64,000 nucleotides of DNA from Fimicolochytrium jonesii. Taxonomy: Eukaryota. Shown piece by piece: positions 16,598 through 45,079 of the stretch. Positions within the stretch are counted from its first letter, which is position 1. Each line of letters begins with the position of its first letter. Position numbers and translations under genes: made by a program. Under the pieces are notes generated by a model. The model worked only from the letters and a program-made list of their open reading frames with translations, made no database searches and was not told the origin of the DNA. Location: positions 1,798,001 to 1,862,000 of the forward strand of contig NW_026515668.1 in assembly GCF_025526975.1 (NCBI RefSeq), in the 5' to 3' direction.

Positions 16598-19500
16598 ATC
16601 AGTGGTCCAAGTAGAACCAGGTATATTCGAAAACGTTGCAATGGTTACCATAGCGGACTCGGTAGTTCCGGCAATAACGGAGAACGTAGTAGGCATCGCC
16701 ACGGCGTCCATCAGGTAGGCGGTGAGTTTGATTGAACTCATAGCAATGGCCGACGGGAGTCTCAATAAAGAGTAATGAAGATTTTGCGTTGTTCCATCTA
16801 AACCTAAATTGGCTGTCGAAGTGCTTGCGGTTGCCCACCGCAGTCTGGAAGCGATGGAGGCGTTCATGTAAGCGTCGAATGGATGACCTGTATACGAATC
16901 GACTCCGTTCGAATTTGGGTATGTATACTCAGATGACGCGGTAACTGTATACCCGTTCCATGAAGAACCTGTTGCTGGCGTTGTGGGGTAAGGGAACAAA
17001 GTAGTTTTCGATGTTAAGGCAGGACTGTTCAAATCACTGGTCACATGGAGATTTGACCCAACATATAAAGATTTCGCTACAGATGCGCCTCCATTCACTT
17101 GAAGAGCGCCTGATGCGTTAGAAGTGGCATCAGTAGTGGTCAAGATCGATACAGTACCACTGTTGTTCAGATTTCCCCCAACATATAAAGATTTCGCTAC
17201 AGAAATCCCTCCAGAAACTTGGAAAGAACCGGTTCCTACTCCTGTAGAATCCGTTGTGGTAAAGACCGCGACGTTACCACTGCTGGTGGAGACTTTAGAC
17301 CAAGTGGTATTTTCGGCCGAATTCCACACGGAAAAATCTCCTACAGTTCTCAAGTCGTCCCATACTCTGATATAAGGATTGGAAGACTGATTTGGGTCTA
17401 TGGAGAGAGGACCTTGTGAACCTGTAGCAGAAATTGTTGCTAAACTCCCGGTGAAAGTCATGTTTCCTGTAACTGTCAAACTGCCGATAGAACCATTAGG
17501 AATAATAACCTTTCCCGTACCATCAATTGTAAGACCTTGTGGTGCATTCCATAATCCCAAACCCAACGTATTGGTTGCAAGACCCGCTCCAACATAGTTG
17601 AAATATACCCTGGCCATGTTATTTGTAGCCGCTCCTACTCCAATTTGAAGTGTTGAGAAACTCCCCGCTGCCAAGTTCGGTGTCCCAAGATGGCTGCTAA
17701 CAATAGGTCCGGTTGAGGCGATATTGGAGTATATGGTGCCGTTAACAGTCAAGTCTTTACCAAAATTGACATTCCCTGCAATACCCGCTCCACCTCTCAC
17801 CTGAAGGGAACCTGATGTTGTCGTAGTAGAATCTATAGTGGAAAGAATCTGTACAGATGGCAGATTAGAGTTGATTATGAAATTGGCATTCGAACCGGAA
17901 TAGAGAAAAAAGTTCCCAGCATTTGGAGCGGTCGTATTGACTCCTGCGTAACCAAAAGCCCCCACTACCGTTCCTGTGTTGTTAAGGAAACCGATAGTAG
18001 AAAACCCAGATGCCGAAAGACTCTGAAGTTTCAAAATATCAACAGAAGTTGAGTTTACTTGCAGTGTATGACTTCCCGTGGCGGCTGAACCAGCAAATAG
18101 AGATTTTCCCACACCTAGACCTCCAGCAACTGTTAGAGCGCCAGTTGTTGTAGAAGAGGAGTCCGTTGTTGTATTGATTAGAACATTTCCATTTGTCAAT
18201 ATATCAAGGTTTGATACGCCGGGTGAGATAGCGAATCGTAAGTTTGTCGGTGAATTATTGTACTGTGCCCGAATTACCATATCGCCAATAGCCGAATTTG
18301 AGGAAAAATACCCTGCTGCTGAAACGTTGCCCGTTATGCTGCTTCCAAATGTGGGTGTTGATACCGAACCGTTGTACCAGAAGATACTTTGATTTGACCC
18401 GACAAAACTCCCATCACTTCCTACCGTCAATTTCTTGGCGATACCAACACCTCCGGCGACCTGTAAAGCGCCAGCATTTGTAGCGTTGGAGTCGGATACC
18501 GAATTGATAGTTAGTGCATTCGTTGTCACATTCACCCATAACGCAAGATTTGCGGCAGTATTGTTGTATAAGCCGAAATTATTAGTTCCAAGGCCACTAA
18601 TTCGACCTATATGCCACAAAGTCCAACCTCCACCGTTTGAGTTTATAAGACCTACAGAAGGTCCATTTCCGGCTGTAGATTCTTTTATGATTCCATATCC
18701 ACCGACGTATAATGATTTAGCAACTCCAACGCCGCCTGCAACTTGGAGAGCACCAGCATTTATAACGTTGGAGTCAAGAGTAGAAGTAACTACAGTCGAT
18801 GCAGCGTTATTTATATTCAAAGTCTGTCCTGTTGTGGTATTCAGGTTCGCTGTTGTTCCTCCTAGGAATACGGTGCCGCCAACCACCACACTTTTCCCCA
18901 CACCAACTCCTCAAACAACTTGGAGCGCACCTGATGTGGTCGAGGTAGAATCAGTCGTTCCGGCAATTTGAACATTGGATAAGTTCGCATTTCCACCAAC
19001 ATTCAAAGATGATAGAGTTCCAACGCTTGTAATTTGAGGCTGAGCAGGATTTACGCTGAACGCATTTCCACTACGTGTCAATCCTGTTCCAGCACTAAGA
19101 AGCGTATCAACATATGTCTTGTTTGTAAGATGAGTTGCTAAGGTCGGTGCTGTTGAGACGACAGCGTTTCCTGACACCGTGACATCTCCAGCAAAGATCG
19201 CATTTCCATTAACGTTCAATGATGATAAAGTTCCAACCGATGTTATCTGAGGTTGAGCCACATTGACAGAGAAATTGTTTCCTGTACGTGTTAAACCGGT
19301 TCCTGCACTTAGAAGCGTATCAACATAAGTCTTATTTGTAAGATGTGTCCCCAATGTCGGGACAGTTGATACAACTACATTTCCTGACACCGTGACATCT
19401 CCAGCAAAGTTCGCATTTCCATTAACGCTCAATGATGATAGGGTCCCAAGAGATGTTATCTGAGGTTGAGCCACATTGACAGAGAAATTGTTTCCTGTTT

Positions 19501-22500
19501 TTGTCAATCCCGTTCCAGCAGTTGAGACTAAACCATCGACGTATGACTTTTGGGCAACCGTTTGATCAATATTACTATATGGAAGGACGCTGGTTCCCAC
19601 GTCGGTAGAGAGGTCTACTACACTTTTGACCGCTAATGACCCGAGCCCTAATGCTGTCCTAGATGCTGATGGAGTCGTTGAGACAAAATTACTTCCATCT
19701 CCTACAAGGAAATTGTTGAGAGTGGCGGTGCTCGAAGAAATAGCAGTCAATTTTCCATTTAGTGGTTGCGCTCCCGTTTGCATTGTAGAAATCAATCCAT
19801 CCACATATGATTTTGTTGCGGGATTTGCTGCAATTGTAGGTGTAGGAACAGTGACTGCACCTGTAAATGTGCTAGAACCAGAAACGGAAAGGCCCGTTAA
19901 AGTACCGATACTTGTAATTTGTGTTTGTACAGGATTGACACTTAAAGTCTGAGCAGTTTTAGTTAAACCCGTTCCTGCAATAACAATGTTAGGATCGATA
20001 CTGGCAACGGAAAGGACCCCACTCACATCTGAACTTGCAAGATTTATAACGGATTTAGCCGCCAAACTGCCAAGTGTAGGCTTGTTTGTAAGTAAAGCCG
20101 AAGCATAGTCAATGCTGTTGAGTGCTGCAAGTGAACCAAGCGTAGGTTTTCCTGTTATGTATGTACTTGTGTAATCAATGCTATTTAGCGCGGAGAGACT
20201 GCCCAAATTCGGTTTGTTCACCAACGCCGAACTAGTGTAGTCTAACGTATCGAGCAAACTCAGATTTTTTAATGAGAGATTCGCACGAACGTCTGCAGGA
20301 CTGTACTGAATGAAGTTCCCACCCGATGCGATGAGCATAAAAGTATTTGTCGGTGCAATGTTCCCAAAATTTGTAAGACGAGCATTAAGTGGTTGATACG
20401 TTGTGGCTGCATTTGCTGTTGTAAGATAATTTGTCAAGGTAGGACTGCTTATGGAGCCGGCGGTCAAAGCGCCTGTTACGTTAAGAGATGTGAGTGTTCC
20501 AAGAGTAGTGATATTTGAGGTATTGACGGAAACAGTGTTAGATGTATCTCTGGAAATAATAGGTCCAGCAAATGTTAATTTCTTCTCGTAGATGGTGAGA
20601 TCTGGAGCACCCGTTATTCTCGCATACGGAATGGTATCCGTTTTTGCAACTTTACCATCGATAGCAGTCTGAAGAAGATTTGTATTCTGACTGATCAAAT
20701 TTGAATACGTTGGCTGTATTATTGTAGAGTCGTATTGACGTAGCATATCCAAGTTGATTGCCTGCTGTGGTACCTCTCCTGCAATACCCAGATATGAACA
20801 TGGAGGTGGGGTGTCAAAAAGTAATCTCGTAACATCACAGGATGTATCATCCGTTTTTGGGAGAGTTGCAATGATAACTTGTGAACCGTTTGGATCTGGA
20901 ACGGGGTTTCCCTTTGAATCCACTACATTGTTGCCATTTGCGTCTTTCTGGTTCTTTCTTTCTCGACCACTCGCAGCGATGAAACCACCAAGGATTCCGG
21001 CTGCTGCAGCAGGTCCTCCGAGAAGTCCCCCAACGCTTCCGATAGCAGATGTGGCAAATGGAGTGCCAGCCGCAGGCCCAATGAGGCCAATTGCGCCTCC
21101 AAGGATGGTAGAAAGGGGACCAGTGACGGAGACTACGGGGTTTCCGGAAGCAGTTAAAGGATCAGATTCGCCACTGGGCACTGAGGTTTCGTCTTTCTCT
21201 TCCGGATCATCATCTTCTTTCCGGTTCTTGTAGGGCTGAATTTGATGAGATATTGAACCCGGTTTCCTCGGAGCCAACTACCAAAATGCCACTTCCGCCC
21301 GTTATGACTAAAGGCTGTTTTGCGATGTTATACTCCTTATCCGCTCCCGTGACGATGATAGGCAACGTTCCAGTTAGTACATTTGGCGTTTCTGGTTCTG
21401 GTTGGTATGTACATGATATTGTCGATCCACTTATACTGATATTGTTTCCAGCCGTATAGGCGCCGGAAATATTATTCCCTGTAACGGTCACCCCATTTGA
21501 TCCAGTATAGGCACCTCTTATTGAGTTGCCTGTCACCGTAACAGTCGAATCACCAGCCTGTAAATCCAACTGCAAATCATTTTCTATGCGTTTGACTCCA
21601 TTACTTGCTGTGAGTTTCTCACCGAACGTGTTGTTACCATCGAATGTGATTGCACCTGAGACAGATGGAGCGAGTTTCACTTGATTCGAATTCTCTAATT
21701 TCATTCCGCCATTTCCAGGTTGAAAAGTCAGTCCTATCGCAATCTTATCGTTTACAATGCGAACACCTTTATTGTCGACGATAGCCGACGGATTTACCAA
21801 AAGATTTTGTGAAGAGTCAATTGCTAAACTTGCATCTGTTCTAACATCGATAGTACGCCGTCCATTGGACACTCCGGATATGTCTATACCTGACCCTGCT
21901 TGATACAGTTGCTCCACGTATGCAGTACTTGGCACTTGATTATTGTCCGGATTGAAGTCGGTATTGACGTATATATGCGGAACATGTAATTCATTGAGTG
22001 TTTCATTATACGTAAAACCACTGTCTCCATTCAACCCCGATAATGCAGAATAGAATGGTACTTGCCTCATACCCTTCGAACGGATCGCTAGTTTTCCTCC
22101 TGTTTGCTGGAAATCATCAGTCGTCTTCAAACGCACAACAGTTGTATCAACATCCGTATCATCTCCTAGAAAATCCGCAAGGGAATCAAACCCTTCTTGT
22201 AGGACATCTTCGAGCAAGATACTGGAACCTTTATCATTCAAGATTGCCCCTCGTCCAACAATCACTGTATCAATATCCGTCTCCAGTTTCCCTTCATCGT
22301 TTACTTTCAACCCTTTCCCATAATTGAGGTGGATAACCTTGTCCTGATCTTTCGAGAGCGGTTCTGCTACCTCCAAAGATTGATCAACGATCGCCTGAAT
22401 GTTCTCTGGAACAACAGACAACTGACCGTTTTCAACTGTCAATGTGGAGTCAATATCCAAAGAGATTCCTTGTACGTTACGCGTCATCGGGGCTGTCAAA

Positions 22501-23012
22501 GGCTCTTTGACAACTTTCAATTTACCATTATTGACCTCTAATGAATCATCAAAATTCAATTTAAGTCCATCGTCTCTTGACAGGGGTTCTTGAAGATTTT
22601 CCAGTTCAGGCGGGGGAAAATTTACAGTCAAACCTTCATTGCTCATTGAAAGAGTCTGATCATGAAACAAAGTCAATCCGTCCTGACTTACTCCAAGAGG
22701 CAGGTTTGTCAAAAGGGAAACAGTTCGGCTTCCGTCATCCCTTTGGAGGGGAAATTCCATATTGTCATGGACTAATTCAATTGAAGCCACTCCTTCGGTT
22801 TTGTGAATAATCGCGTCTTTGCTATCGACAAGGTCGTTGATTTTTAATTCGCCGTTTTCATTAGATATCTTTTGAAAGCCTGGTGAATGAAAATTATCAA
22901 TTGATACGTTCTCTCCATTAGCACGAAGACTATTGGTCACTAAAGGAGAAACGAGATTTGTTCGTTCAAGCACTCTGATTCCGCTTGAGGTTCGGGAATT
23001 TAGACTGCTCAT
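16598..23012 (-). pseudogene. Giant virion fibre/spike protein (>2100 aa); +1 frameshift near 21220, TGA at 18911-18913, C-terminus truncated by the solo LTR
   Basis: Three ORFs (21210-23012, 18911-21277, 16541-18901) read as one protein. It has beta-spiral-like repeats (PLSRDDGLKLNFDDSLEVNNGKL), 60-aa AGTGLT..NFSVN repeats, TTDS..GALQVxGGVGxxKSLYVG repeats and a discoidin-like tip (YTVTASSEY...RWAT). The TGA replaces a GGA within the repeat consensus. Confidence 0.75.
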
Positions 23013-23032
23013 TTACTAATTGCTAAAGAAAA

Positions 23033-23329
23033 TTATCCGATTGGAGTTTGCTGTAAATGTTCTAAGAATTGATCACCGCCTTTATGGAAATCTTCAACCC
23101 TCTTTATTCCTAGATCTGCAAACTGTTGCCCTTTTCGCGCAGTTTCTTTGATTTTATCGTGGAAGACGTCATTCTGTTGAATCCCTTTGTTTACATGGCT
23201 TGCTATCGCATATCCCTTTCGACTAACGGAAACCGCTTTGTCTAGAAAATTCCTCGCCTTTCCGATATTTTGTGGCAGTTCGTTGAAAAATGTGCGCACT
23301 TTTCCTCTCGCTTTTTGAAAGAATCCCAT
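23033..23329 (-). CDS. Small basic amphipathic protein (98 aa), candidate myristoylated membrane-active virion protein
   Basis: N-terminus MGFFQKARGKVRTFF with helical amphipathic pattern; carries the shared upstream motif. Function is inferred. Confidence 0.6.
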   Translation of the reverse strand: MGFFQKARGKVRTFFNELPQNIGKARNFLDKAVSVSRKGYAIASHVNKGIQQNDVFHDKIKETARKGQQFADLGIKRVEDFHKGGDQFLEHLQQTPIG

Positions 23330-23377
23330 TGAATATTCTTTTTCTTAACATGTACTAAAGAATATATATTCCATTCT

Positions 23378-24874
23378 ATGTTGGTTCTTGACGACAAGTT
23401 TGCTCGATTGCCAAACAATACTTTTCCCTCCCCTCCAGTGTTGAATATCCATTCAAATCAGTTCGGTTACATACAGGGAAAGCCGGAAGAGACCTTTGAC
23501 CGTTTATTCAAAACTCCCTTCTTCGTTCCAGGCAAAGGGAAAATATCGGATGCATTCTCTATAAAAAAGACTGTAGATCAACCACTCAAACTCCGTGAAG
23601 GAGAGTACCAGTCTCAGATTGCAAAACAGGCTGTGGAAGCGCTCCATGCTATCGATAAGGAACGTGCAAGACAAGCATACTTTGATGAATTGGATAAAGA
23701 CAATCTTTTCCCTCGACAAGGTCGAACGGTTTCTTTGACGAAAACCACAGCGTCGAAAGGCAATACAATTTACCATCAGCCGAGTTACATTCGCGCTCAA
23801 CAGAATCAATTCATCGGAGATGCATCATCCAATGTGCAACGAACCGGTGATGATCACCTTCCGGAAAAAGCAAACATGAGTGAAGCAAATACGATACTTG
23901 GTAACAACAAGGTGGTAACAAAAATGAACGATCGTGAAACATTGACGGACGAAATTGGTAGAATCGGTTCTGCTGAAAAGATAAGCATGTCAAATAGCCG
24001 CACACAGACAGATATTCCTCTCCATCGGGTTCGAGATCTTAGAACAGTTGGAACGCAGAGTACAACACCGGATCTAGACAGCGATACGTTAGATCTTACA
24101 TTCTCGTCTGGAGGAAAATTTACACATTTTATGGATGGAGTAACTCACGCGAATCAAACCTTGCAAACACAACTCCGATCCCAAGAAGAGCAACTTGGAA
24201 GAATGACAACAGCCACAATGTCTACGTTCAAAAGAATGTTAGAATCGGTAGGTTTTAAAAATGTTCCTTCGACAATGACGCCGGACGAGATGGAACGACT
24301 TCTCAGCCAAGTGCAAAGCGTCACACCTATCGCATTAAGTGAAGTAGGAGCGATGCAAAGATTGATAGAAACTTTAAGAAAGGAAAAGATTACAGAAAGC
24401 AAAGATGTAGGGACACAATATTCTCTTGGAGATGTGCCGCGGGTTGCTAGACCACGCCCACCACCCATTATTACGAATTTCTCACCAACAATAAGTTATC
24501 CATCTGCCAGTTCAGCAGTCACTCAAAGCGACATTTTCCTGAATAGGAGTCCAAAATCTACCCTTTCAACTGGAACGGTAGGATCCCGTATGGATCTCTC
24601 CACACCAATTGAACAATTTGTTACCGCCGAACCGATTACTCAAGTTCTTTCCCCAAATGAGGATTCTGCAACACCAACACAGAGAGATATCTTCACCGAT
24701 TCCCCAGCAGTGAGGGCTTCAGAAAATACACCCATTGCGCCAATAAGGAAAAGAAAAGTACACGAGCAAGTTTACCTCCCGAGAGATTATCTTATGAACA
24801 CGGCTGGGAACAATCTTCAAAACGGGCACGAAAAGTATAAGATGAAAAGATCATCATTGTATAGAGGATTATAA
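23378..24874 (+). CDS. Viral hypothetical protein (498 aa), S/T/P-rich with basic C-terminus
   Basis: Long intact ORF inside the structural module. Confidence 0.75.
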   Translation: MLVLDDKFARLPNNTFPSPPVLNIHSNQFGYIQGKPEETFDRLFKTPFFVPGKGKISDAFSIKKTVDQPLKLREGEYQSQIAKQAVEALHAIDKERARQAYFDELDKDNLFPRQGRTVSLTKTTASKGNTIYHQPSYIRAQQNQFIGDASSNVQRTGDDHLPEKANMSEANTILGNNKVVTKMNDRETLTDEIGRIGSAEKISMSNSRTQTDIPLHRVRDLRTVGTQSTTPDLDSDTLDLTFSSGGKFTHFMDGVTHANQTLQTQLRSQEEQLGRMTTATMSTFKRMLESVGFKNVPSTMTPDEMERLLSQVQSVTPIALSEVGAMQRLIETLRKEKITESKDVGTQYSLGDVPRVARPRPPPIITNFSPTISYPSASSAVTQSDIFLNRSPKSTLSTGTVGSRMDLSTPIEQFVTAEPITQVLSPNEDSATPTQRDIFTDSPAVRASENTPIAPIRKRKVHEQVYLPRDYLMNTAGNNLQNGHEKYKMKRSSLYRGL

Positions 24875-24926
24875 TTGTAATATTTGAGAATCATAAAATT
24901 CTGAAATGTACAAAAGCGCATAAGTT

Positions 24927-25064
24927 TTAAACGATCGTCTTCCCGGCTCGTCGAGCAAGGATAAATGGAAGCAGTTGTGGAGGGATTACACCTTTTTTCG
25001 GTTTTCCCGATTTTGTTCTAGCAGGTATGCGAACTGGTTTCAAAACCTTTTGTTTTCTCGGCAT
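24927..25064 (-). CDS. 45-aa K/R/P-rich protein, candidate genome-condensing core protein (below the ORF-track cutoff)
   Basis: Hand translation MPRKQKVLKPVRIPARTKSGKPKKGVIPPQLLPFILARRAGKTIV*. It fills the gap directly downstream of the MCP gene. Confidence 0.55.
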   Translation of the reverse strand: MPRKQKVLKPVRIPARTKSGKPKKGVIPPQLLPFILARRAGKTIV

Positions 25065-25092
25065 TGGTTTCTACTATATGATTAGAAGATTT

Positions 25093-26319
25093 TTAACCTA
25101 TAATATCGACGGTTGCTCCAATCAAGATGGTGCGTTGTGAATAGACGGTTGTTTGCAATGCGACGGCGGTACTAGGGGCGGGTAAATTATGTGTCGTAAT
25201 TAGATGTACGTTTCCGGAGCCTCCAAGTAGGTTCAAAGCGCTACTGGAATCTTCATCTGCGCTTTGCCACGAATAACGCATTACGAACTGTTTGTTGTAA
25301 AAGTTATCGAGGTCCAGGTCTTCAGAGGCGTATGATGTATTGTCGTTCATGGAGAGGTTGCCTATCATAACCGTATCTTCTATTTGGAAATCTTCGGTCA
25401 AAGGTAATCTATATTGGCCTATCTGGTATCTCCATGACTTCAAGTTGGCTGTATCATAAATCAGAGATTTGTCCCCTGATGTAGTGGCGTATTTATTATC
25501 GTCTCTAAACCTATGTGTTAATCCGACGATCCGGCCGTTTGTGAGTGGGAGGATGAAATTGTTCTGTGACGCACCACTGCATACATTGGATAACTGCGAA
25601 ACTGAAACGACATCCATTTCCAGATATTTTCCTGATTTTATACCGGACCACAATGCGGACATATAAGTGGCACTCGGGGTCAAAAGTTGTGCTACATAAC
25701 GAAGATTTGAAACTTCAAAGTATACTCCAGAACCTATATTTGAAAAGGCACTCTGCGGGGTATTCAAAGTGAAAGTTAATTCCACTGATTGATTTGGTAA
25801 AATAGCTAGTGGAATCGGGTTTCCGTTCAACGGCCTCATGGACCCTGCCAACAAATGGTGTTTGAATGTGAAAGTTCCGTTCGGATTTTTGAAAGCATCC
25901 GGGTTACCTGCACCTTCGTTATATTTTAGGTATTTTCGTTTTTCTGCCTCCACAAACTGGAGAGTGTCCGCAACAAAACTTGGCATATCTTCAATTTCGT
26001 CAACAACTTTTCCGCCAAACTTTATGTTCATCGTTCGGAAGCAAGCCATCGCCCCGATTTGAGAAATCTGCGCATCCGTGACGGGGCTGCCATCCGCGTT
26101 TTTAACAGAAATTGTTCCCGATAGATACGAACGTTGAGGTCTCAAAAAGGAACTATTGGAATCAACTACGATCTTTATAGCATTTCCAGGTGATTTTGAA
26201 CTAAACGTCTCCTTGATTGGGCCATAAATCGCAATATTTTCGCTGAGAGCGTCTGAATGCATCGAAAATTGTCTGCTACTATAGATCCGGTTTGAAGGAA
26301 CAACGGGATTTGTTGACAT
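25093..26319 (-). CDS. Major capsid protein (double jelly-roll, PLV-type), intact, 408 aa
   Basis: N-terminal pattern SPGNAIKIVV...FLRPQRSYLSGTISV...FRTMNIKFGGKVVDEI resembles PLV/virophage MCPs. Beta-rich, appropriate size, adjacent to penton and ATPase. Confidence 0.82.
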   Translation of the reverse strand: MSTNPVVPSNRIYSSRQFSMHSDALSENIAIYGPIKETFSSKSPGNAIKIVVDSNSSFLRPQRSYLSGTISVKNADGSPVTDAQISQIGAMACFRTMNIKFGGKVVDEIEDMPSFVADTLQFVEAEKRKYLKYNEGAGNPDAFKNPNGTFTFKHHLLAGSMRPLNGNPIPLAILPNQSVELTFTLNTPQSAFSNIGSGVYFEVSNLRYVAQLLTPSATYMSALWSGIKSGKYLEMDVVSVSQLSNVCSGASQNNFILPLTNGRIVGLTHRFRDDNKYATTSGDKSLIYDTANLKSWRYQIGQYRLPLTEDFQIEDTVMIGNLSMNDNTSYASEDLDLDNFYNKQFVMRYSWQSADEDSSSALNLLGGSGNVHLITTHNLPAPSTAVALQTTVYSQRTILIGATVDIIG

Positions 26320-26374
26320 TATTTTAAGTTATAATGGTTTAACATATCTCTTAGAAAAAAATAATCGAGGTCCA

Positions 26375-26845
26375 TCAACGTCCACCGAAGATTCCCATAT
26401 ACGGGTCATCATCTGCTTCGGGAGGATCAAATTCTACAAACGTGTTTTCCTCCACAGAGTCGTCTTTGTACGCAGCAGGTTGAAGCGCTTTCGGCATTCG
26501 ATTGATTTTTGCTATACGCTCTTGTCGCTTTTGTTCAGCGATTTTCTTTTTTTCCGCTTCATATTTCTCAATTATCTTTCTTGCTTCGTCTTTTTTAGAT
26601 TCTTTTGCCCTTTTGTCTTGCTCCTTTTCCTGTTCTTTATCTGCTTTCTCTTTTAGTTCCTTCATCTTCTTCAAGTTCTCGGTACGTTTCTCTTGCGCTC
26701 GACGCATTGCTTCGATCTGCTTTTCAGATCGCGGCTTTTTGACCTTCACCTTTTCAATAACAGCCTCGGTGATCGGGTCGTCAACAATTGGTTTTTCTTC
26801 CTGTACAGGAGGGTTTTCAGTAGATGCGCTTTTGTTTTCTGACAT
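26375..26845 (-). CDS. Charged coiled-coil viral protein (KKPRSEKQIEAMRRAQEKR)
   Basis: Intact ORF between penton and MCP, carrying the shared upstream motif. Confidence 0.7.
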   Translation of the reverse strand: MSENKSASTENPPVQEEKPIVDDPITEAVIEKVKVKKPRSEKQIEAMRRAQEKRTENLKKMKELKEKADKEQEKEQDKRAKESKKDEARKIIEKYEAEKKKIAEQKRQERIAKINRMPKALQPAAYKDDSVEENTFVEFDPPEADDDPYMGIFGGR

Positions 26846-26886
26846 TTTGTTCAATGTTTTACTGTACAGAAGAGAAAAAAAATTCG

Positions 26887-27637
26887 TTATACAACGAGGT
26901 CACTAGGGTCGTCTAAAATTCCCAGATGAACTGTTATTGGAGCGGATGTTCTCACAACTTGCAACGATGCACTATCGACGATTTGGAAATCAATTTGATT
27001 GAGTGTAAGATCTTCGGCTCGATGAAAGTTGTCACTCGGGTTGACCCATGTCAAGATATCTCCATACGAATCAGGATTTAATCGCTGCTAAACAATTGAT
27101 GTCCGAGTCAATACCAGCCGGATAAAGAATCGCTCCATTTGTCTGTAGAGTCCTTGAAGTTATTAGAATTGGTTGTGATGCGGATAGATTGAGTGTGTTT
27201 GGAAATGTTATACTTGATCCATATCCGGTTTCATTCACTTTATCGATACCAAGTTGCAGAAAAGCGCTTGAACCACGGGATCCTCCGAGGATCTTGAACG
27301 TTTTACTTCCAGAGGTCGAAACAGTTAGTCTTCGAGTCACTCCATCGTAAGACACACTGTACGGTTGTGATCCCGCTGCAGTCATTGCGCTTCCAAGAGC
27401 ACTCAAAATGTTTGTTGAATCGTACGTCCCTTCGGGCAAAGTCGCTTTTCTTAAAGTCGTAGATCCCGACTCAGCAAAAACAACCGCGTTGTTAAAATCC
27501 GATGTCGCACTCCATGACTGCAGTAGAGATACCGAAATAAGTCTCCATGCATAGCACGGGACGGTATTTTGAAGACGAAATGTACAATTATTCATATCTG
27601 GTAACGTACCAGAATTGAGGATAATCTCTCGAAACAT
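26887..27637 (-). pseudogene. Minor capsid protein (penton, single jelly-roll) with a +1 frameshift near 27078
   Basis: Penton-like LPEGTYDSTNILSALGSAM...YSVSYDGVTRRLTV. Removing one A from ATTAAATCC extends the frame with NPDSYGDILTWVNP...LNQIDFQIVD...ITVHLGILDDPSDLVV* (about 249 aa). Confidence 0.78.
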
Positions 27638-27692
27638 CGATTTCTTATCTTTGGTATAATGTAAAGAGATTAATTTTACGAGTGCGCTAAAT

Positions 27693-28427
27693 ATGAGAAT
27701 TGCTAAACCGAAAATTCCTTCCGAATATCAGATACACATAAAGGACAAAACTCCGAGTGATTATCCAAAAAAGTTTTTCACATTAACGCTGGTGGGAAGC
27801 AGTAGGGCTGGAAAGACCACCTGTATTATCAATCTTATCCAGAATTGTGCAAAAGCGTATCAAACGGTGGTGGTTTTCTCTCCAAGTGCTGACTCACCGG
27901 AATGGACAAGTTTGAAGAAATGCGATAACGTTTACATGTCCAGCGTTGTATCAAATCATATTCTGAACAACCTTTTTGAGAAACAGAAACTACTTTATAA
28001 ACAAGATAAATCCAAAAATCATATGCTGTTAATTTTGGATGATTTTGGTATCCTCGCAAAAGAAAACGGCCCCGCAATTGGAAAGGAACCTAAAGAACCG
28101 GAACTGATATCGAGCGGGGTTAGGCAAATGCTGGATTTACTGTACTCCAGGGCGAGACATAATGGAATGTCGGTTCTCTGTTCTCTTCATGATACAAAAC
28201 AACTCACACCGTTACAAAGAGTCAACAGCACTCATTGGATATTGTACAGATTGAACCAAAAGCAATACGAAAAGATTGCGGGTGAGATTCGCTGTCATTT
28301 GTCCGAGTCGGAGTTTGTAGATTTAGCCGAGAGATATACTGTCAATCCTTACCATGCGCTCTACATAGATTTGAAAAGCCCGACAAACGAAGGAGTCTTT
28401 AAACAATTGCAACCAGAAACGCATTAA
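27693..28427 (+). CDS. A32-like (FtsK/HerA superfamily) DNA-packaging ATPase, intact
   Basis: Walker A GSSRAGKT, Walker B LLILDD, arginine-finger segment SRARHNGMS and downstream LTPLQRVNSTH. Confidence 0.92.
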   Translation: MRIAKPKIPSEYQIHIKDKTPSDYPKKFFTLTLVGSSRAGKTTCIINLIQNCAKAYQTVVVFSPSADSPEWTSLKKCDNVYMSSVVSNHILNNLFEKQKLLYKQDKSKNHMLLILDDFGILAKENGPAIGKEPKEPELISSGVRQMLDLLYSRARHNGMSVLCSLHDTKQLTPLQRVNSTHWILYRLNQKQYEKIAGEIRCHLSESEFVDLAERYTVNPYHALYIDLKSPTNEGVFKQLQPETH

Positions 28428-28943
28428 AGAAAAAATTGTGGACTTAAAGTATAAGATGTTTGATAACATTTTCTATTTGCCAAATTCGCTAACCAAAGAA
28501 TCTTTTGACAAACTTATCACAGGATAGGCTTTGGTTAGATATGCCGGAGGACGTAAGGACGAGAACTTTACAACAATGTAAGGAAGAAATAGTTGTGAAT
28601 ATCGTTCAGTCGCATTTGGACAAGCAGGTTCCAGTCAAAACTCCAAGAAGAACAAAGGCCGCTTGAAGATTTTTAAGATCTCCGTCCTAAATATGACGTA
28701 AAACTATTATCCTGCAAGTTGAGCAACAAAGACAACTTCCGCACGGCCAACTCCTGAACAAATAATGCCATTTACTATTTGGGTTGTGCTTTTCAGGCTT
28801 TTCGAATCTTGCCTATATAGTATGACCTCTTGACTGAGCGCTCATTGCCCGAGAAAAGGTTCAGGTATTTTTATCAATTTTTACCGAACAATGACAAAAA
28901 ATTGACCACAACATTAATTTGTGGTCAATTGATAAACAAACTA

Positions 28944-30257
28944 ATGGCTCCTCCTTTAACCGAAGAGCAATTGAGATTCATCAACGATCTTTACTACAAG
29001 AAACATAATATACAGGGTCGGGATAGACTGTTTTTTCTAACTCAAAAACTCGGGTCGGACATCTCCAGACGCCAAATAATGGATTACCTGGATAAGCAAG
29101 AAATCCATCAGAAATTCACTCGCCCGCTCTGATTTACTGGCGTCAGAGCGATTGTCTCCACCAAGCATGGATCATTCCAAGCGGATACTTTAGCAATGGA
29201 AAGTGAAAGTTATCGCGGTTTCACGGCAATCTTTTCAATGATAGATACTTTCAGTAGAAAGTTATACGCGAAGCCGATACGTACAAAATCCGCTGCCGAA
29301 TGTACCCGAGTCCTCCGAGAGATTCTCGCACAAAATCCTAATATTGTCTTTGATCGATTGCAAACCGATAACGGAACCGAGTTCCAAAATGTTTTTTCAG
29401 AACTTCTTCGGGAGCAAGGAGTGCGACATGATGTCCCTCGTCCGGGTCAACCGTTTTCTAACGGACTTATAGAAAGAAGCAATTTTGCGGTACGAAAAGC
29501 ATGCGTAACTTATATGGAAACGACGGGGAAAAGAGATTGGCCAGACATGCTAGACAAACTGGTCGATAATTTGAACAATACATTCAACAGTACAACAAGA
29601 AAAAGTCCAAACGAACTGGAGGAAACCGCTGCAGATTCGGAAATTCATAAACAGGCTGGGGAGAACATTATAAACAGAGCAAATAGATCAGTACAAACTC
29701 GTGGAGCGACCTTGCTCCATGAGGGCGACAAAGTTTGTAGAGTACTCCAATATTCTGGAAGCGGTATCAAGAAAGCGTCGCGGCTCGGATATTTCGACAT
29801 AAACAATTTGTATGAAGTGACATCCGTTGTTCAAAGTCCTTACCCGAACGCGTTACCGAGTTATAAACTCAAAGACGCAAACGGAACCATACTCAAAGGA
29901 TTGTGGTCGCGAGCGCAACTTCTCAAAGTTCCGTTCAGTGATCATCGTATCGATAGGAGACAAATTTTAGACGAAGACGACAACAGACAAGATGGTGGAG
30001 AAGATGCTCCGGCAAACATAGAAGAAGAGGACGAGGAAGAACATCCTTCCAGACGTTCGGGACGAATCAATAAAGACAGAGAATACGAAGTGGAGTACAT
30101 TATTGATAATAGAAGAGTCAAAGTGGGAAGACGAACATTCATTGAATATCTAGTAAAATACAAAGACTATCCTATCGAACAAAGTACTTGGGAACGTGTG
30201 AGCAACATAAATGCGCCAGATCTAATTCGAGAATTCGAGAATCGTAATAGGCGCTAG
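28944..30257 (+). pseudogene. Polinton-type RVE (DDE) integrase with C-terminal chromodomain; one in-frame TGA at 29130-29132
   Basis: ORFs 28830-29132 and 29196-30257 share a frame. DDE motifs FQADT, LQTDNGTEF, NGLIER; chromodomain EYEVEYIIDNR...EYLVKYKDYPIEQSTWE. Confidence 0.9.
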
Positions 30258-30263
30258 GTCAAA

Positions 30264-31256
30264 TCATTTCTTGTCAAAGATCAAAGACTTGTATCGATTA
30301 TAGTATTGTTGATGAACCGAGTAAGTATGATCGAGTCTTTTCTCAATTTTCCTTTGATATTCCAAGTCGCCATTGTCCTTCTCGCTCAGATAGATACCGA
30401 GACTTTGACGAAATCTCCAAACAGTCAAACGGCGCTTTTTGAACATTTTTTCCATAACATCCGCGAATCTATTCAGAAACCATTCATCTGTTGGATCGCC
30501 TCCGTTCTGTTTGCAGAAAAGGTAGTTCTGACCGGCCTTTTGTCGAGCCTCCATAAGCATTTTCGCATACTTTCTCCCGTTACCTTTCAGATTGATTTCG
30601 TGGGAACGACCTGTCTTGTTTGCATCTTTGACAACTATTTTAGAACAGTCACTCTCAATGTAAACATCCGCGTTTTGATCGAAACATGTGGTGGAGATAT
30701 CCCCTCTCAACATTTTATCGCTTGACCAAAATATGATCAGGGCAACAAGCATTTGATTCTTGATAATATTCTCACTTGTAAGCGTGGAAAGGACTTCTTT
30801 GATTTTGCCGACTATATCAAGAAACGGAACATAGTTTTCAAGATCCAGTTCGGTCATTTTTTGTTCATCGTTTCCCTTTTGGCGTTTCTCTTTTTCTTCA
30901 GGAGAAAGGGACATCTTGGTGAAGTGTTCGAGGATATCCTCATTGAATTGCTTATCGACCATCTCGTCGCTAAGATCTTTTTCATTATCAAAAAGAATCC
31001 GCTTTTCTTTAGCGCTCATATTTCTAAGGACTTTCGAGAGAAACTTCACTTTATTGGCGCGGGTATGCTTATTCGACCATTTTTTCTCGATTGACGAAAG
31101 TAGATCTTTAGGCTTTTTTACAAGATGAAGTTGATCGCTCAGTACGTTACAGGACGAAACCATGGATCTGTGATCCTTATTGCTGTCCTTAATGCGATTG
31201 AGCACACTTAGGCAGAATTTATGGTTGAAAGCGGGGTTTTGATTGTTGTCTGACAT
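30264..31256 (-). CDS. Tyrosine recombinase-like protein (PLV-type), intact, 330 aa
   Basis: Catalytic-type residues in order: LRGD (R), NKTG (K), WRFRQS (HxxR position, His absent), LDHT...QQYY (H, Y). Confidence 0.7.
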   Translation of the reverse strand: MSDNNQNPAFNHKFCLSVLNRIKDSNKDHRSMVSSCNVLSDQLHLVKKPKDLLSSIEKKWSNKHTRANKVKFLSKVLRNMSAKEKRILFDNEKDLSDEMVDKQFNEDILEHFTKMSLSPEEKEKRQKGNDEQKMTELDLENYVPFLDIVGKIKEVLSTLTSENIIKNQMLVALIIFWSSDKMLRGDISTTCFDQNADVYIESDCSKIVVKDANKTGRSHEINLKGNGRKYAKMLMEARQKAGQNYLFCKQNGGDPTDEWFLNRFADVMEKMFKKRRLTVWRFRQSLGIYLSEKDNGDLEYQRKIEKRLDHTYSVHQQYYNRYKSLIFDKK

Positions 31257-31412
31257 TATTCTCTATTATAAACGTGTATATGTTTATACCAGAAAATAGT
31301 TCTATGGCCGATATAAAAAATCGGCCTACTTATGCTTAATTGGATGTCATCGAGATTACGATCCTATTACAATTAAACTCGGTAAGTTGATATGATTTAA
31401 GTCATGATGATG

Positions 31413-33017
31413 TCATGACACATCGGAGTCACCTTTTCCGTTTTTGGACAAGTCCTTCATTTTCCTCCCAGATAGCAAATCTGTGCGGCCATTCAATTTT
31501 GCGATGTAAGTCAATTGCTTCTCGCCCTCTCCCTCGATAATGATCTTGACTATGTCGATCAAGAAGGAGATTCTCGAACGGGGCTTTGTGCAATAATGTG
31601 GATGCATTTGAGCCCATATTGGATGCGTTACATCTACCCAAGGGTGGAAATAATCGGCAAGATCCCGGATTTTAACTTGACCCGATTGAGATTCGGTTGT
31701 CACATTATCGAGGAACTCGAAAAACCAATCCGTGCGAAATCCGTCGATTTCGGAGGGAACTTTTTTGATATTGCTCTCGCCAGACATCTTGTCGTTCAAG
31801 ATGATGATGTTTTTGTTCATGTCGCCAATCGCATCCGTTATGCCATCGAATCCCTTTTTCAATTCTTGCAGAAGCATTTCGGTCATACTCTGATCCCCCA
31901 AAACACTGGAATTTCCACTGCTTTTAACCATCGCGCTGCTAGATGACTCTCCACGATCCACTGGTAACGAGAAGAAGAAAATAACATTCTTGTCAATACA
32001 ATTCGCGTGATGGAATAGATTGAGTAGGTACTACCTTTTGAACGCTTCACGGCAGGAGTGAATGTGTCAGGTTGTGCTGGTCGTTTACCCTCACGTCTAT
32101 CGGCTGCGGCCTTTCTTTTTTGCTCCATTCTTTCCTGTTTCATCCGTTTTGCAGCAGCGCGATCCTGAGCCAGCCTTTCCCTTTTCTCTTCTTTTTTCTT
32201 CTGCTTTTCATGAATTCTTCGCATTTGTTCCTCCAGTGACAATCCAGACCCATTCTCGTTGTCACTCAAATCTTCGTCGTCAATGTCATCTTTGCTATCA
32301 TCATCACCATCATCTTCGGAATCGGAATCGGTGGGTGATCCACGAGATTGCCGCGAGGGGTACTTATTATCGCCAGAAGGTTCAATAGACACTTGACGTG
32401 AATTCTTTTTCACTGTTTGCTGCTTGGGAGGTGATAAATGACGACTACTTTCTGGGTTTTCGTACTCCGGTCGGTTCATGCCAGTAGCATCGTTGTCCGA
32501 ATTATCATCCGAAGTGCTCACATACGGTTTGCTGAACACGGATTTGCTTCCACGACGTTTACGAGGAGTTGACTGACCACTCCGTTGTTCCCCTTCACTG
32601 TTCCTTCTGGAAGATATCTTCTCCTTTTCAACTTTGTTTTCCAACTCTTTCATCTTCTCCTTCGCTTTCTGAATCTTTTCGAATGCTTTCCGTTCCCTGG
32701 CTGCGATTTGTTCTTGCATTTTCTTTAGTTGTTCGTCCGCAGTGCGCCTTTTCCTTTTGGCTTTGCCGGATTGATGGTTTGTATCTTCTGTACTCGCAAT
32801 CTCAGCAGGTGCAGGTTCGGTTATTTTGACAGAATTGTTTGTCCCTGTGAAAAGGACATTTTGCTCGGTATCAGATTCCGTGGAAAGCAGTTCATTTTTG
32901 TCGATTCCAATTGCTACAAACCGCAACAAAAAATCGTGAGTATAGCCTGGGATCAAAGTATCTCGAAATTTGCGATTCTTACAATCTGTTTCGTCGTGTC
33001 CTTCTCTGAACGACATT
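31413..33017 (-). CDS. Two-exon viral protein: charged low-complexity region plus C-terminal D5-like winged helix; intron 31961-32034
   Basis: AAAAG|GTAGTA...ATTGAC...TTTTCTTCTTCTCGTTACCAG|TG joins ORF 31883-33154 in frame to ORF 31413-31961 (KRSK-V-DRGES). The start codon is uncertain. Confidence 0.65.
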
Positions 33018-33285
33018 GATAAAGTTACAGGTCTTATTGATGTTTGTGGAATGTCCAGTTCGGTGTTTATTCCAGTCTCGTTTCTCAAATCCACCCGGTG
33101 AATCTTCCAAGAAACTGAATGATTTCCGCAGCGACCTGGTATTACTTTAAACACGAAACGCGCTCTCTGTCCACATTACATTCGGACGGTGAATGCGAGC
33201 GACACTAAGACGTACGCTTTCCCTTTCTCGAATCCACTTTCAAAGTTGGATATTGCACTTTCCGATAAGCATTACTGCATTCAAA

Positions 33286-33510
33286 ATGGATAATATCCCT
33301 ACATACAGTCCCAGCGTAAAAGCGCTCACAAACGATACCGAATCGCTTGCAGCAAATATCGGCGAACTTCTGGAATCCGACAATTTAAGTGAAGATGTTC
33401 GCTTTCATTTGGAATCTTTTCGAGTTCACTTAACGGAACACCTTGCAAAGGCCCAAGCCTTGTCGGTTTCTTGGGACAAGATCTTGGAACTTGCGTCCAA
33501 AAAATGGTAA
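33286..33510 (+). CDS. Small helical viral hypothetical protein (74 aa from MDNIPT)
   Basis: ORF starting at CAAAATGG in the packed viral region. Confidence 0.5.
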   Translation: MDNIPTYSPSVKALTNDTESLAANIGELLESDNLSEDVRFHLESFRVHLTEHLAKAQALSVSWDKILELASKKW

Positions 33511-33569
33511 AATTGCGTTTGCTCATTATTTAAAGCAATCGACAGAGTAACTTATAACTTCTTTTTATT

Positions 33570-33773
33570 ATGCCCAGAGAAACGATCCGTGGACGGCCTA
33601 TGAAGCACCCGTCAAATGGAAGACCCCTCATTCCACCGAGAACACGAAAATGCAAGGAAGAAACTTGCAATGAAATTATTCCATTTCAACCCAGACGGAT
33701 GTACTGTTTAACCCATTTCATGAAAAAAATTGAACTCCCAGTTGGGTTTCAACTTGAACCGGATAGCGATTGA
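33570..33773 (+). CDS. Small putative zinc-finger protein with AT-hook-like RGRP
   Basis: C-x4-C-x12-C-x2-H (CKEETC...CLTH) and N-terminal RGRP. Confidence 0.55.
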   Translation: MPRETIRGRPMKHPSNGRPLIPPRTRKCKEETCNEIIPFQPRRMYCLTHFMKKIELPVGFQLEPDSD

Positions 33774-33778
33774 TGTTC

Positions 33779-34009
33779 TCACCCGTTGTCCACCTTTTTC
33801 ACCTTCCGAGTAATGGAGATGTTTCTTGCAGATCGGCATGTTGGTTTTCGAGCGATAATGTCCAGAACTGTACATTGGCACAGATTCAGTTTCTTTGCCA
33901 AGTCGCGAAGGCTCTTTCCATCGATTTGTTTAATTTCTCTGTCATAAAAGGATATGTCCGCTGTATATGTGAACGGACTAAGCATTTCCGATGTTGCTTT
34001 ATTAATCAA
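33779..34009 (-). CDS. Small helix-turn-helix protein
   Basis: KSLRDLAKKLNLCQCTVLDIIARK fits an HTH pattern; divergent from the replicase gene. Confidence 0.5.
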   Translation of the reverse strand: MINKATSEMLSPFTYTADISFYDREIKQIDGKSLRDLAKKLNLCQCTVLDIIARKPTCRSARNISITRKVKKVDNG

Positions 34010-34077
34010 TATAAATATTATGAAATCACCTGCGTTTAAATGCCATTTAAAGTATTGATTGTATTAAGAATAAAGCA

Positions 34078-36898
34078 ATGACTCAACACAAACAAGCTCT
34101 AACTGGGGAAAAACGCGCGGCAATGGACATCAGGTTTGTCAAGTCTTCTAAACGTTTGCGTGTAAACGACCGAGTCCGACGTGACCGTGCAATAAGCGCT
34201 GGGGATTATGATCTCGCAAGAAAGATCGAAGAAGAAGCAATTCCCTTTGCTGGGAGGGAATCGCATCTATCTATTGGAGAGAATGGAAGCGATATCATCA
34301 ATACTAGTATCGTATGTAGTGAAAGCAGTGAAGAGGCTCATTCTTCGGAAAGGGACATGGAAAGCACCCATTTACCGAACATTCCAGGTGTAACATACCG
34401 AGGTGAAGTTGATAATGACCAAGATGACCAAGATGACCACCTTTATCATGAAAAATTTGACCTTCCCCTCGTCAAGCACGAGTTCCAACATGACGGTCGA
34501 GTTCAGAACTTGATTACAAGCAAATACGTGGACGCAAAGACTAAAAACGGGCTTCGATATATGAAAAGATTCAAAGTTGCACCAAATACGTACAAAGTCG
34601 AATATAATCATGGAAAAGATGCTTTGGAAATTGCAAGTGGGCGACTTGTACCAAATCATTTCTCGTTGCAGCAAATGCCCGCACGCGAAACCCAGCATAG
34701 ACAGTATCTGTCTTGCGGGCAATATGACGACGTCGATTTTGTAAACTGTCAGCCGACTATTGCCAATCAGTTTCTCCTTCAACGCAATCTAATTGTTCCG
34801 CAAATGCAATACTATGTTGAAAATCGACAGGACTGTCTTAAAAAATGGAATATGGAGAAACATGATGTGGATTGCGGTACTCAACACCGTTAACGCGGTA
34901 AATTGTCACCCCGATCTCAAAGCCATTCACCGTGCCATTTATGAGAAACTCGTCCCCATCCTTGAGGAGGAAAACCCTGATATTTGGCAAAAAGTTTTGA
35001 AATCTCGAAAACCGAAAACAGTCAATAACCGCGAAGGATCATTTTTCTCGCAGGTGTGCCAAACGACCGAAAACACGATGCTGCTCCTTATGCACCACTA
35101 CTTTCTTAATGCAAAGTTTCGTCCCGATGTTCTCATTTCTGATGGTTGCCAGATTCGTAAAGATCCCGAAAATCCTCTTACCCCTGAACACTTGCGAGCA
35201 TGCGAGCAATACATCTTTGACAAAACTCAAATGCAGATGAGGATAGCCATTAAACCTATGGAAGTTCCCGCCTCCTACTATGAAAGATTTGGTTTAATTG
35301 CGGATAATGATCATCACCAATTATTTCCCATCGTGGATGAGAACACGGTATTTGCTGAATCAACCGAGGAGAAAGAGCCTTTATTTCTCGAACCTCTGTA
35401 CCCAGAAAATCCACGTCTTGACGAACTAGCAAAGAGCATGATCTGTGAAAAGTCTCACGCGGCATGTGCTCAATTCATCTCCGAATTATGGAGAAACGAT
35501 TTCTTCTATGGAGATAATAGTTGGTGGCACTTTGAAAATCATTACTGGAAAGATTCACCTTATTCTATGACGCATAAAATAATGTTCGAGTTATTCCCAA
35601 TCCTTGACGAATTGACAAGTTGGCGCGACACAGGTGGTGATCTAGATGGACATATCTCGAATCTCAAGCGGAGTTTATCGGATTTACCCACATCCAAGAA
35701 TATCGCATCCGCGTGTATTGGTCATTTTCAGAAACTAGACTATCACGCATTTAAATGTAGTTTGAGTCGAGACTTGGCGCTACTGTGCTTCAAAAATGGA
35801 GTCTACGATTTGAACGCCGGACATCTTAGGGATGGCAAACCCCAAGACCGCATCTCTATACAGATTAATTACGACTTTGTTGATTTTTCGCTCCCGGAAA
35901 ACGTGCATATTTTGAAGCGTCTTGGGACGATTCTCCAACAAATCCTTCCAGATCGTGACGAGCGGGAGTATGTTCTTGATATCCTGGCTTGTGCTCTTGG
36001 AGGAAAAAGGACCAATAAACTTGAAATCCTTCTCGGCGAGGGCGCAAATGGAAAATCGCTGCTGACTCAACTTATGGAGTTAGCATTAGGGCCATATGCA
36101 ACCTCTTGGAGCACCGCAATGCTGTGTACAGAATTCGACCCTACCGCACCAAACACCGAGTTGAACAGGGCCAGACACGTCCGATTCATCAATATCCAAG
36201 AAGGCAAAAAATCATCGCAGTTTAACATGGGAACATTTCGAAAGTACACGGGAGGAGATTCCTTCAATGGTATACGCGATCTCTTTGAGAAAGGAAGCGG
36301 GGTAAATTCATTCGTACTGCATGCTCAACTTTGGCTATCACTCAATACGCTTATGGCAATATCAGAGGCGAATCACGCAACTTGGAGACGGTTAGAGTTG
36401 CTTGAAATGCGGTCCAAATTTGTCGAGGCTGAGTCTGAGGTAGATGTGAAAAACAATCGGTATCTCGCGGATGAGTGTTTGAAGAAAGAACTAACCAGTC
36501 TTGCTCCGGCATTCATGTGGTTGTTAATTGAAAAACGCTACAGAAACATGCGAGACAAAAACGACTTTGTTTTATCTCCGCCCACCTCAGTTGTTGAAGC
36601 AACGGAGAGATATCGCAGTGAACAGAATGTTTATCAACTCTTCTTTGATGACATGTGTACCTTTGAATCTGAAGGCCGCATCTTCAATACGGAACTATTT
36701 GAGAAATGTCAGCAGTGGGCAAAAATCAACCTTAAAGCGGTTACAAAGGCCGATATGAAAAAGTGGCTGTTGAGCCAACCGGGCGTTCAATGGAAAGATT
36801 CGTTAAAGATCATGAAAAGCGTAGGCGACTTTGGTCAAAGAAGTGTAGACAAAGTGTCACGAGGATATCTAGGAATCAAATTGAACAAGTATGAGTAG
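34078..36898 (+). pseudogene. TV-Pol (family-A-related primase-polymerase) fused to D5-like SF3 helicase; +1 frameshift near 34870
   Basis: GRLV..FSLQQM, motif A DVDFVNCQP, YYVENR, QTTEN, motif C LISDG; D5_N LLCFKNGVYDL; Walker A GEGANGKS, IQE, RRLE; C-terminal winged helix. Confidence 0.85.
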
Positions 36899-36925
36899 GG
36901 AGGGGAAAAGTAGAAGCGGGGGTAG

Positions 36926-37340
36926 GTAGCCATTAAGAGCAATCCGTAGTCATTCAGGTAGCCATTTTTTCTGACTCGACAAAGAACTTTAGATCGAGTG
37001 AAAGGTTGAATTTGATAAGAAGAGTGAAGAGAATAATATGAAGAGAATAGAAAGTAGCCAAGTAGCCATTTATTTTGGAAAGGTGTTATAGTATAAATTT
37101 TGATCAACAAGGTGGTGGTGGTGGATATGACCACCACCTTGAGGAGCACATTTTAATATATACGGAGAGAATTCTGGCAGAAAATGGCTACTTGGCTACC
37201 ATTTGAAACGCTCGACGAAACGGCTCGATAAAAATCAGTGAAAGACGCGTGTTCACTCGATAAAGAGGGAAAGTATGGAGAGGAGGGAAATGGCTACGAA
37301 ACGGCCACGAAGTGGCTATGAAATGGCTAAAAATGGCTAC
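36926..37340. promoter_or_regulatory. Putative iteron-type replication origin or terminal repeat array of the virus
   Basis: GTAGCCA(TT) copies at 36926, 36946 (variant), 36958, 37054 and 37062 face inverted (AA)TGGCTAC copies at 37183, 37193 and 37289-37340. A 12-bp hairpin (37108-37119/37130-37141) and AT-rich tracts lie in the centre. Confidence 0.55.
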
Positions 37341-37484
37341 CACTCGATAACGTTGTTATTCGCGCAAAGTAACAGGACCAATCCGGAGACAACGGAGAGG
37401 GTTTCGTGTAGTCCTGGCAAGAATTGGCTCGAAGTCGTTTAATAAAAGAAGGCCCAGCGAGGTCACGTGACTGGAGTCGTGCCG

Positions 37485-37670
37485 ATAGGCTGCTGAGATC
37501 TGTAGGATAGGCTGACGAGATCTGTGGCCCATAGACTCATATGCTGAGAATAGGCTGTTGAGGACTATGGGCCATTGACCCGTAGGCTGTTGAGAAGTAT
37601 GACCTATAGACCCATAGGCTACTGTAATAGGCCACCCATAGGCTGTATAGCCCATGGGTGGCCTATGACA
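37485..37670. repeat. TAGGCT(G) repeat array ending in a 48-nt near-perfect palindrome (37623-37670)
   Basis: About seven TAGGC(T) motifs; TGTAATAGGCCACCCAT...ATGGGTGGCCTATGACA. Confidence 0.8.
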
Positions 37671-37806
37671 CGGGTGCTAATACCGCCGTCAGCTTTGCGA
37701 TAGTTAACGCTTAGAGCTTGACCCATTTGAACACCCGCATCAAAGGGCGCAACGGCTCGACGGCGACCAACGCCAAGGCAACGGCCCCGCAGAGCGTAAC
37801 CGCCCC

Positions 37807-39170: not shown

Positions 39171-39197
39171 CCGCCTGCAGCGCCTCAGCGTCCAGAC

Positions 39198-39727
39198 TGT
39201 TATGAATGGGCGGAGCCGACGGAAATAGAGGCGACTTGTGGTGCAGGTTGTTGACAGGTAATGGTATTCAGACCGAAACAAGAACTAGAACAAGACTAGG
39301 AAGAACTGGTGTTGATCTGCTGGGGGATCAGGAAGTGGGGAGCTCAGGGGAGGCGGCTATTTATGCTTTTCTGGGAAGGCTGGGGAAGCGTGGGGAAGCA
39401 GAAGGGTACGGAATGAGAGGGAAGCCAAGAGAAGCGCCAAGGGTGGGGGAAGCATAGAAACAGAAGACTGGGGATGGGGTGGCTACGCTGAGGCTGTGGC
39501 GGGTACGTGGGGAAGTATGGAGAAGGGTTTGTAAGCGCCGAGTGTTGGGAGGTGTGGCTACGTGCGGCTGCGTGGAGAAATGAAGGCAGTGGCAGGTGTG
39601 GGGTAGCGCGGCTGCGTGCGGCTGCGAGGTTTGGCAGATGTCAGGTTTTGACAGGGAATTGACATTGACTGACTGTTGGGATGCTGTCATGAGGTAAGCG
39701 CATGGTATGGACGCGTCGTCCATAACA
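39198..39727 (-). repeat. 3' LTR of copy B
   Basis: 530 bp, TG...CA ends, adjacent PPT. Confidence 0.97.
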
Positions 39728-39739
39728 TCACCCCCTCCT

Positions 39740-44493: not shown

Positions 44494-44544
44494 GGTGATT
44501 TGGCGTGGAGGTACAGCGGCTGGGGGTTGTTGAGCAGATCAAAC

Positions 44545-45074: not shown

Positions 45075-45079
45075 CAGAC

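Follow-up and report, generated by a model that had tools for sequence, protein, structure and literature searches.

Integrated Polinton-like viruses (PLVs) as well as virophages are usually classed by a single type of integration enzyme, as the first-pass annotation of the locus described here had stated. Passages of two recent surveys agree with this rule: Bellas 2023 (PMC10120064) words it as 'either YR or rve', treating tyrosine recombinases (YR) and RVE integrases of the DDE type as alternatives, and Bulzu 2025 (PMC12220804) reports co-occurrence in 12 of 8300 elements, all of them stemming from nested retrotransposons. How integrated PLVs and virophages leave the chromosome again and how they resolve their replicating genomes is an open question, which elements carrying both enzymes would allow to be dissected. 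In a 64-kb stretch of Fimicolochytrium jonesii DNA (the window hereafter), an RVE-chromodomain integrase gene meets, tail to tail, an open frame that very likely encodes a YR. Does this locus hold two integration systems within one viral element and, if so, what would each of them have done?

Results and discussion

A Polinton-like element flanked by retrotransposons

Both genes are situated in a low-GC block of about 21 kb, which is probably a Polinton-like element of F. jonesii, the probable chytrid fungal host (Table 1). On its left side an inverted LTR (16067-16597) cuts into a fibre gene at 16597, on its right side the element meets a second retroelement, and self-comparison gave no TIR at the ends of the element. 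The A32 packaging ATPase, a PLV hallmark, was recognised by Pfam. The candidate for the minor capsid protein, a frameshifted gene, resembles the presumed minor capsids of three related viral loci (L003, L004 and L005) and had no match in the libraries, while the 408-aa capsid candidate had none in Pfam, PHROGs, NCBIfam, the PDB sequences or two small capsid profiles, and a scan for its close relatives came back empty. Among the 16 element proteins, Pfam matched neither a virophage major capsid protein (Sputnik_MCP) nor a maturation protease, whereas the virophage locus L001 scores E 7e-23; the missing left arm of the element could conceal a protease gene. No DNA_pol_B_2 match, and hence no pPolB, was found among the same 16 proteins, and the replicase is of the D5 type. 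The TV-Pol/D5 replicon proposed in the first-pass annotation holds for its D5 helicase part, which was scored, but TV-Pol was not confirmed by any library; the N-terminal part of the replicase may, by motif only, be TVpol/PolA-like. As a side observation, a 98-aa protein encoded at 23033-23329 starts with MGFF, and in L004 and L007 small proteins resembling it were seen by eye next to the capsid gene (not significant in phmmer).

Table 1 Features of the viral element in the window
Feature	Position	Strand	Basis or remark
Endogenous Polinton-like virus remnant (probable)	16598..37352		GC 0.43 vs 0.52-0.54 in flanks; both ends adjoin LTR-retrotransposon sequence
Fibre-like repeat genes	16598..23012	-	Pfam Av_adeno_fibre E 1.3e-12
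Presumed major capsid protein, 408-aa ORF	25093..26319	-	Size and position only
Likely minor capsid protein	26887..27637	-	phmmer E 5.6e-10 to L005:10714-11472, itself presumed minor capsid
A32-like packaging ATPase	27693..28427	+	Pfam Pox_A32 E 1.7e-8
Perfect palindrome, 12-bp arms and 7-bp spacer	28900..28930		13 bp upstream of RVE start; single copy
RVE (DDE) integrase, 437 aa, chromodomain at C-terminus	28944..30257	+	Pfam rve E 1e-12, Chromo E 1.7e-13
Gap between convergent stop codons	30258..30263		6 bp; no room for transposon end
Likely tyrosine recombinase, 330 aa, open frame	30264..31256	-	Pfam match below cut-off, aligned catalytic residues, Atlas matches
Replicase: N-terminal part and D5 helicase	34078..36898	+	D5_N E 6.8e-10; PHROG primase-helicases to E 5e-41
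Origin-like symmetric array	36925..37341		Directly 3' of D5 helicase; DNA folding z = -6.97

The RVE-chromodomain gene encodes a viral-type integrase

The convergent arrangement described earlier was confirmed, with the TAG stop of the RVE gene at 30255-30257 and the minus-strand stop of its neighbour at 30264-30266. The same is true of the single TGA in the RVE frame, which falls at codon 63 (29130-29132) and leaves the DDE triad intact: 17 of 17 aligned homologues share D81, D142 and E177 with it. The integrase stands alone, not fused to a reverse transcriptase (RT), and is of viral type. In a tree of 21 rows it groups with PLV and virophage integrases, split with support 90/95 from the two Gypsy integrases of the window; its nearest kin there is the protein P0004 (98/98), followed by a protein of Rhizophlyctis rosea on a long branch (87/92). 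Close relatives were found neither by single-protein search nor with a degenerate RVE pattern.

P0004 is an intact relative with 75% identity and permits a comparison of rates. We counted 28 substitutions derived in the window copy versus 32 derived in its sister, so no excess change, and the conserved columns were spared (15/113 differ vs 58/257, p 0.047), which together indicate that the RVE gene was under selection until recently.

The 330-aa frame very likely encodes a tyrosine recombinase

The neighbouring frame is, as had been noted, open over its full 330 aa, and comparison of its sequence makes a tyrosine recombinase very likely. The catalytic residues of this superfamily occur in the order R-K-(H)-R-H/W-Y. 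The candidate residues R184, K214, R283, H310 and Y319 align with those of the YR of L003 and are kept, in order and spacing, in P0002, an intact relative with 72% identity that is colinear with the C-terminus of the window protein; conservation is highest over the last 76 residues (67 of 75 shared with P0002). The Pfam family Phage_integrase (PF00589) matches with E 5e-4 (20.3 bits) over the full length and E 1.4e-4 (22.2 bits) for the domain, both below the curated cut-off of 27.1 bits, and the relatives score similarly (P0002 E 3.1e-4; L003 domain E 5.3e-4). The ESM Atlas returned clusters of Preplasmiviricota at 0.98, in one of which 16% of the members carry PF00589, and at 0.95 a ResT/TelK cluster with only 137 shared features; these Atlas matches count as a single line of evidence. 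For a protelomerase (ResT/TelK/TelA) there was no Pfam match, nor does the element hold a spacer-less palindrome with arms of at least 9 bp. Searches with the 330-aa protein in PHROGs, NCBIfam and the PDB sequences gave nothing relevant, and no close relatives were found in viral contigs or metagenomes. A scan of phage records likewise yielded no close relatives.

Two AlphaFold models of the protein are of low confidence, with mean pLDDT 45.5 and 43.9. With the first, 10 of the 11 top Foldseek rows are XerH, XerD, XerA or TelA (E 0.14-0.96), and no match in Foldseek, BFVD included, has an E below 0.04. With the second, YRs are not ranked first: VIA places XerD (Z 4.7, rmsd 4.0, 110 aligned) at rank 37 of the 50 listed, where it is the longest alignment among the matches listed, in a list dominated by helical hairpins. 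The recombinase identity put forward in the first-pass annotation is carried by the aligned residues, the sub-threshold Pfam matches and the Atlas matches; both models are too poor to establish the fold, and no evidence against a YR fold came to light.

Over 69% of its length the YR shows 100% identity to an NCBI protein assigned to F. jonesii, which makes this chytrid the probable host. The NCBI model P0003 (239 aa) finishes in a different reading frame of this DNA, which by eye is consistent with a predicted GT-AG intron; the unspliced 330-aa frame assumed here is supported by P0002.

The pairing in related loci

Our census covered 11 RVE loci of the PLV/virophage type from IMG/VR (L001-L009, L055 and L056). 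From the 54 loci numbered L001 to L054, 45 were left out (L010-L054, E 1e-8 or weaker), these being taken as bacterial IS or prophage from a weak match to the core only, with L010 and L011 alone inspected. A YR motif was present at 1 of the 11 loci, L003, a count to be read with the state of the records in mind, as L003, L004, L006, L007 and L008 were covered in part and several others are contig fragments. The Polinton-like L003 contig (IMG/VR) carries a DJR-like capsid and, like the element in the window, an A32 ATPase and a YR beside an RVE-chromodomain gene (L003:2-2268). It differs in that the YR ends 29 bp upstream of the integrase gene on the same strand, in tandem instead of convergent, in the YR being only about 20% identical to that of the window, and in having a weak match to a protease. 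The two pairings probably arose independently. The one complete record, with an RVE and a D5 helicase (G001), showed no YR, from which it follows that a D5 replicon does not need one. With co-occurrence at 1 of 11 related loci, many of them incomplete, the pairing recurs without being routine.

Pfam misses the YR of L003 at full length and finds it only when the protein is trimmed; since standard annotation misses such YRs, published counts according to which the two never occur together may be too low. The intact relatives of the two enzymes, P0002 and P0004, come from two separate Logan contigs, both short (2412 and 3352 bp), which do not show them linked. In the virophage contig L001, the RVE ORF (L001:6342-8018) shares its frame with roughly 200 residues upstream that belong to another protein.

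Known elements with one or both enzymes

The pairing is not unprecedented, RVE and YR together being already known from virophages of protists. A close parallel, in Hackl 2021 (PMC8547959), is formed by the mid-GC EMALEs of types 5-7, endogenous mavirus-like virophages of Cafeteria burkhardae, which have an rve-INT with a chromodomain plus a YR, lack pPolB and carry this set together with a long primase-helicase replicase. These EMALEs have a virophage MCP and a protease and a protist host, whereas neither of these proteins was detected here and the host is probably fungal. As far as an extract of the respective preprint goes (10.64898/2026.07.28.741278), a subset of the endogenous Halocafeteria seosinensis virophages likewise carries RVE and Yrec, and palindromes go with the non-pPolB replicons; there, the PLVs of the authors do not carry both enzymes, and the palindromes lie in TIRs next to TSDs.

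Three groups of PLVs share single traits with the element, again judged from parts of the sources. YR-encoding PLVs with OLV11-like recombinases (Yutin 2015, PMC4642659) have a divergent YR but no RVE, a likeness that does not imply kinship with OLV11. Entomopoxvirus-associated PLVs (Barth 2024, PMC11296320) have an end module of inverted repeat, primase-helicase and YR, comparable with the primase-helicase followed by an inverted-repeat region in the window, but no RVE. The PLVs of the Spizellomyces punctatus group (Bellas and Sommaruga 2021, PMC7805220) are also integrated in a chytrid genome, but pPolB occurs in 64% of them and a VLTF3-like gene in 96%, neither of which was seen in the window element. 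A further preprint (10.64898/2026.10.13.758929) associates YR with PolA/AEP replicases and DDE integrases with PolB. A literature search outside subscription journals and preprint supplements turned up no PLV and no fungal element described as having both enzymes in stand-alone form. Apparently new are the occurrence of both in a fungal element of PLV type and, beside this module, a single 12-7-12 palindrome of loxP/dif shape, along with an origin-like array of repeats. The pairing is thereby carried beyond the virophages of protists to an element of PLV type whose host is probably a fungus, and a candidate pair of enzyme and site becomes available.

A candidate core site and an origin-like array

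Perfect palindromes with arms of at least 10 bp (spacer up to 12) occur only twice in the window, both times inside the element. The first, upstream of the RVE gene, has what we take to be the geometry of loxP/dif-type core sites, and its 12-7-12 structure was matched by 2 of 300 shuffles. It is a candidate for the core site of the YR or, alternatively, for an operator or terminator hairpin. The latter may apply because related loci often hold hairpins of comparable size between their genes: arms of at least 10 bp were present in 7 of 12 such loci, in hairpins that are mostly AT-rich and intergenic. Near the YR of L003 there is no comparable palindromic site.

The second palindrome forms the centre of the array behind the replicase gene. 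In this array a 10-bp repeat, with three copies on the minus strand and four on the plus strand, faces a central hairpin (37108-37141) from both sides. The array has the look of a replication origin, and because its two halves lie together it is not a split TIR.

What would the two enzymes have done?

RVE integrases are not known to excise. The most likely reading, to which we assign a probability of about one half, is a division of labour between chromosome entry by the RVE and action of the YR on the viral replicon. Insertion of the virus into host chromosomes would fall to the RVE; the recombinase, if active, would act on the viral DNA, either circularising it or resolving multimers that arise from the primase-D5 helicase replicon. 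Its best candidate target would be the single 12-7-12 palindrome at 28900-28930, and in the ancestor of this copy both genes would have worked together. A bolder proposition is that dual-recombinase PLVs are a real, under-counted class, overlooked because their YRs stay below the Pfam cut-offs, and that the YR of the chytrid lineage is a Cre/Xer-like resolvase acting on its own loxP-shaped 12-7-12 site; this we consider doubtful. If true, a eukaryotic virus would make use of separate enzymes, the RVE for entry into the chromosome and the YR for circularisation, exit or multimer resolution, and a defined enzyme-site pair would be open to assay.

A related possibility, which deserves mention with the odds clearly against it, is that the enzymes had two targets, with the RVE directed at the fungal chromosome and the YR at the genome of a helper giant virus. 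Such a use has been proposed, in the passages concerned, for EMALEs (Hackl 2021, PMC8547959) and for the Halocafeteria virophages (10.64898/2026.07.28.741278). Moreover, giant viruses infect zoosporic fungi and a F. jonesii contig has a giant-virus MCP gene, as part of PMC13533422 states, and the placement of one core site next to the integrase agrees with an attP-like layout of the kind found in Yutin 2015 (PMC4642659). Neither a helper virus nor a giant-virus target site was seen in the window, however, and the two-target use overlaps with the division of labour described above in that the enzyme chemistry is identical and the site perhaps too.

It is unlikely that the locus captures a replacement of modules under way, in which the YR and the primase-helicase have displaced an older, now vestigial RVE. 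The model of end-module turnover, in the sections seen of Barth 2024 (PMC11296320), predicts loss of the RVE once these two have been gained, and a stop is indeed present in the RVE and absent from the YR. This contrast between a broken and an intact gene, correctly observed in the first-pass annotation, turned out to be uninformative, because lesions also affect the capsid, fibre and replicase genes and chance alone would lead one to expect an intact YR. The element has suffered several recent lesions: the replicase gene is frameshifted near 34860 and the minor capsid gene near 27075, and a fibre-like gene has an in-frame stop at 18911-18913. With 4 lesions over 15.8 kb of coding DNA, the probability that a gene of 993 bp such as that of the YR escapes damage is about 0.78. 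The RVE, moreover, shows no relaxed evolution against its intact sister, so that selective loss of this gene was rejected as well. Decay driven by CpG was also rejected, the CpG o/e of the element being 1.06. Some of the lesions may be assembly errors; this copy of the element is probably dead. Separately, a small ORF between the ATPase and RVE genes (28456-28665) also appears to be broken by stops.

We regard it as very improbable that the 330-aa protein is a YR-fold protein with altered catalysis or an unrelated DNA-binding protein, for instance a regulator that binds the palindrome at 28900, which would leave the element with one integration system only. All YR matches do stay under the curated cut-offs, PHROGs and NCBIfam are silent on the window protein, its hhalign alignment to the YR of L003 has a probability of 1.8, and a non-canonical W280 (S in P0002) takes the position of the first His in the usual H-x-x-R motif. 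On the other hand, R, K, R, H and Y are found in the proper order and spacing and are kept in P0002, and Pfam, Atlas and Foldseek all point towards the YR superfamily.

That the RVE-chromodomain gene is a nested fragment of a transposon or retrotransposon, as in the co-occurrences of Bulzu 2025 and as the richness of the window in Gypsy chromoviruses might suggest, is largely refuted and was rejected, given that there is no RT or gag, that the GC content is viral (0.43 vs 0.55) and CpG is not depleted, that the 6 bp between the stops leave no room for a transposon end and the C-terminus of the YR is colinear with P0002, and that the tree places the RVE with viral RVEs.

Neighbouring DNA

To the left of the element, after a Gypsy chromovirus copy, come a 410-bp repeat of the internal end of that copy and then an inverted LTR, without a matching TSD (9774-16597); a rearrangement at this place probably removed the left arm of the viral element. 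To its right, a second Gypsy copy (39197-45074, 99% identical) has a TSD of 5 bp and is nested in another retroelement (about 37353-48220). Host gene fragments at 4963-7096 resemble a secreted NTPase-type protein, to which the label Crinkler-like may apply. Close by in the host DNA lies a perfect 39-bp inverted repeat with a spacer of 22 bp (4786-4885), possibly a small MITE.
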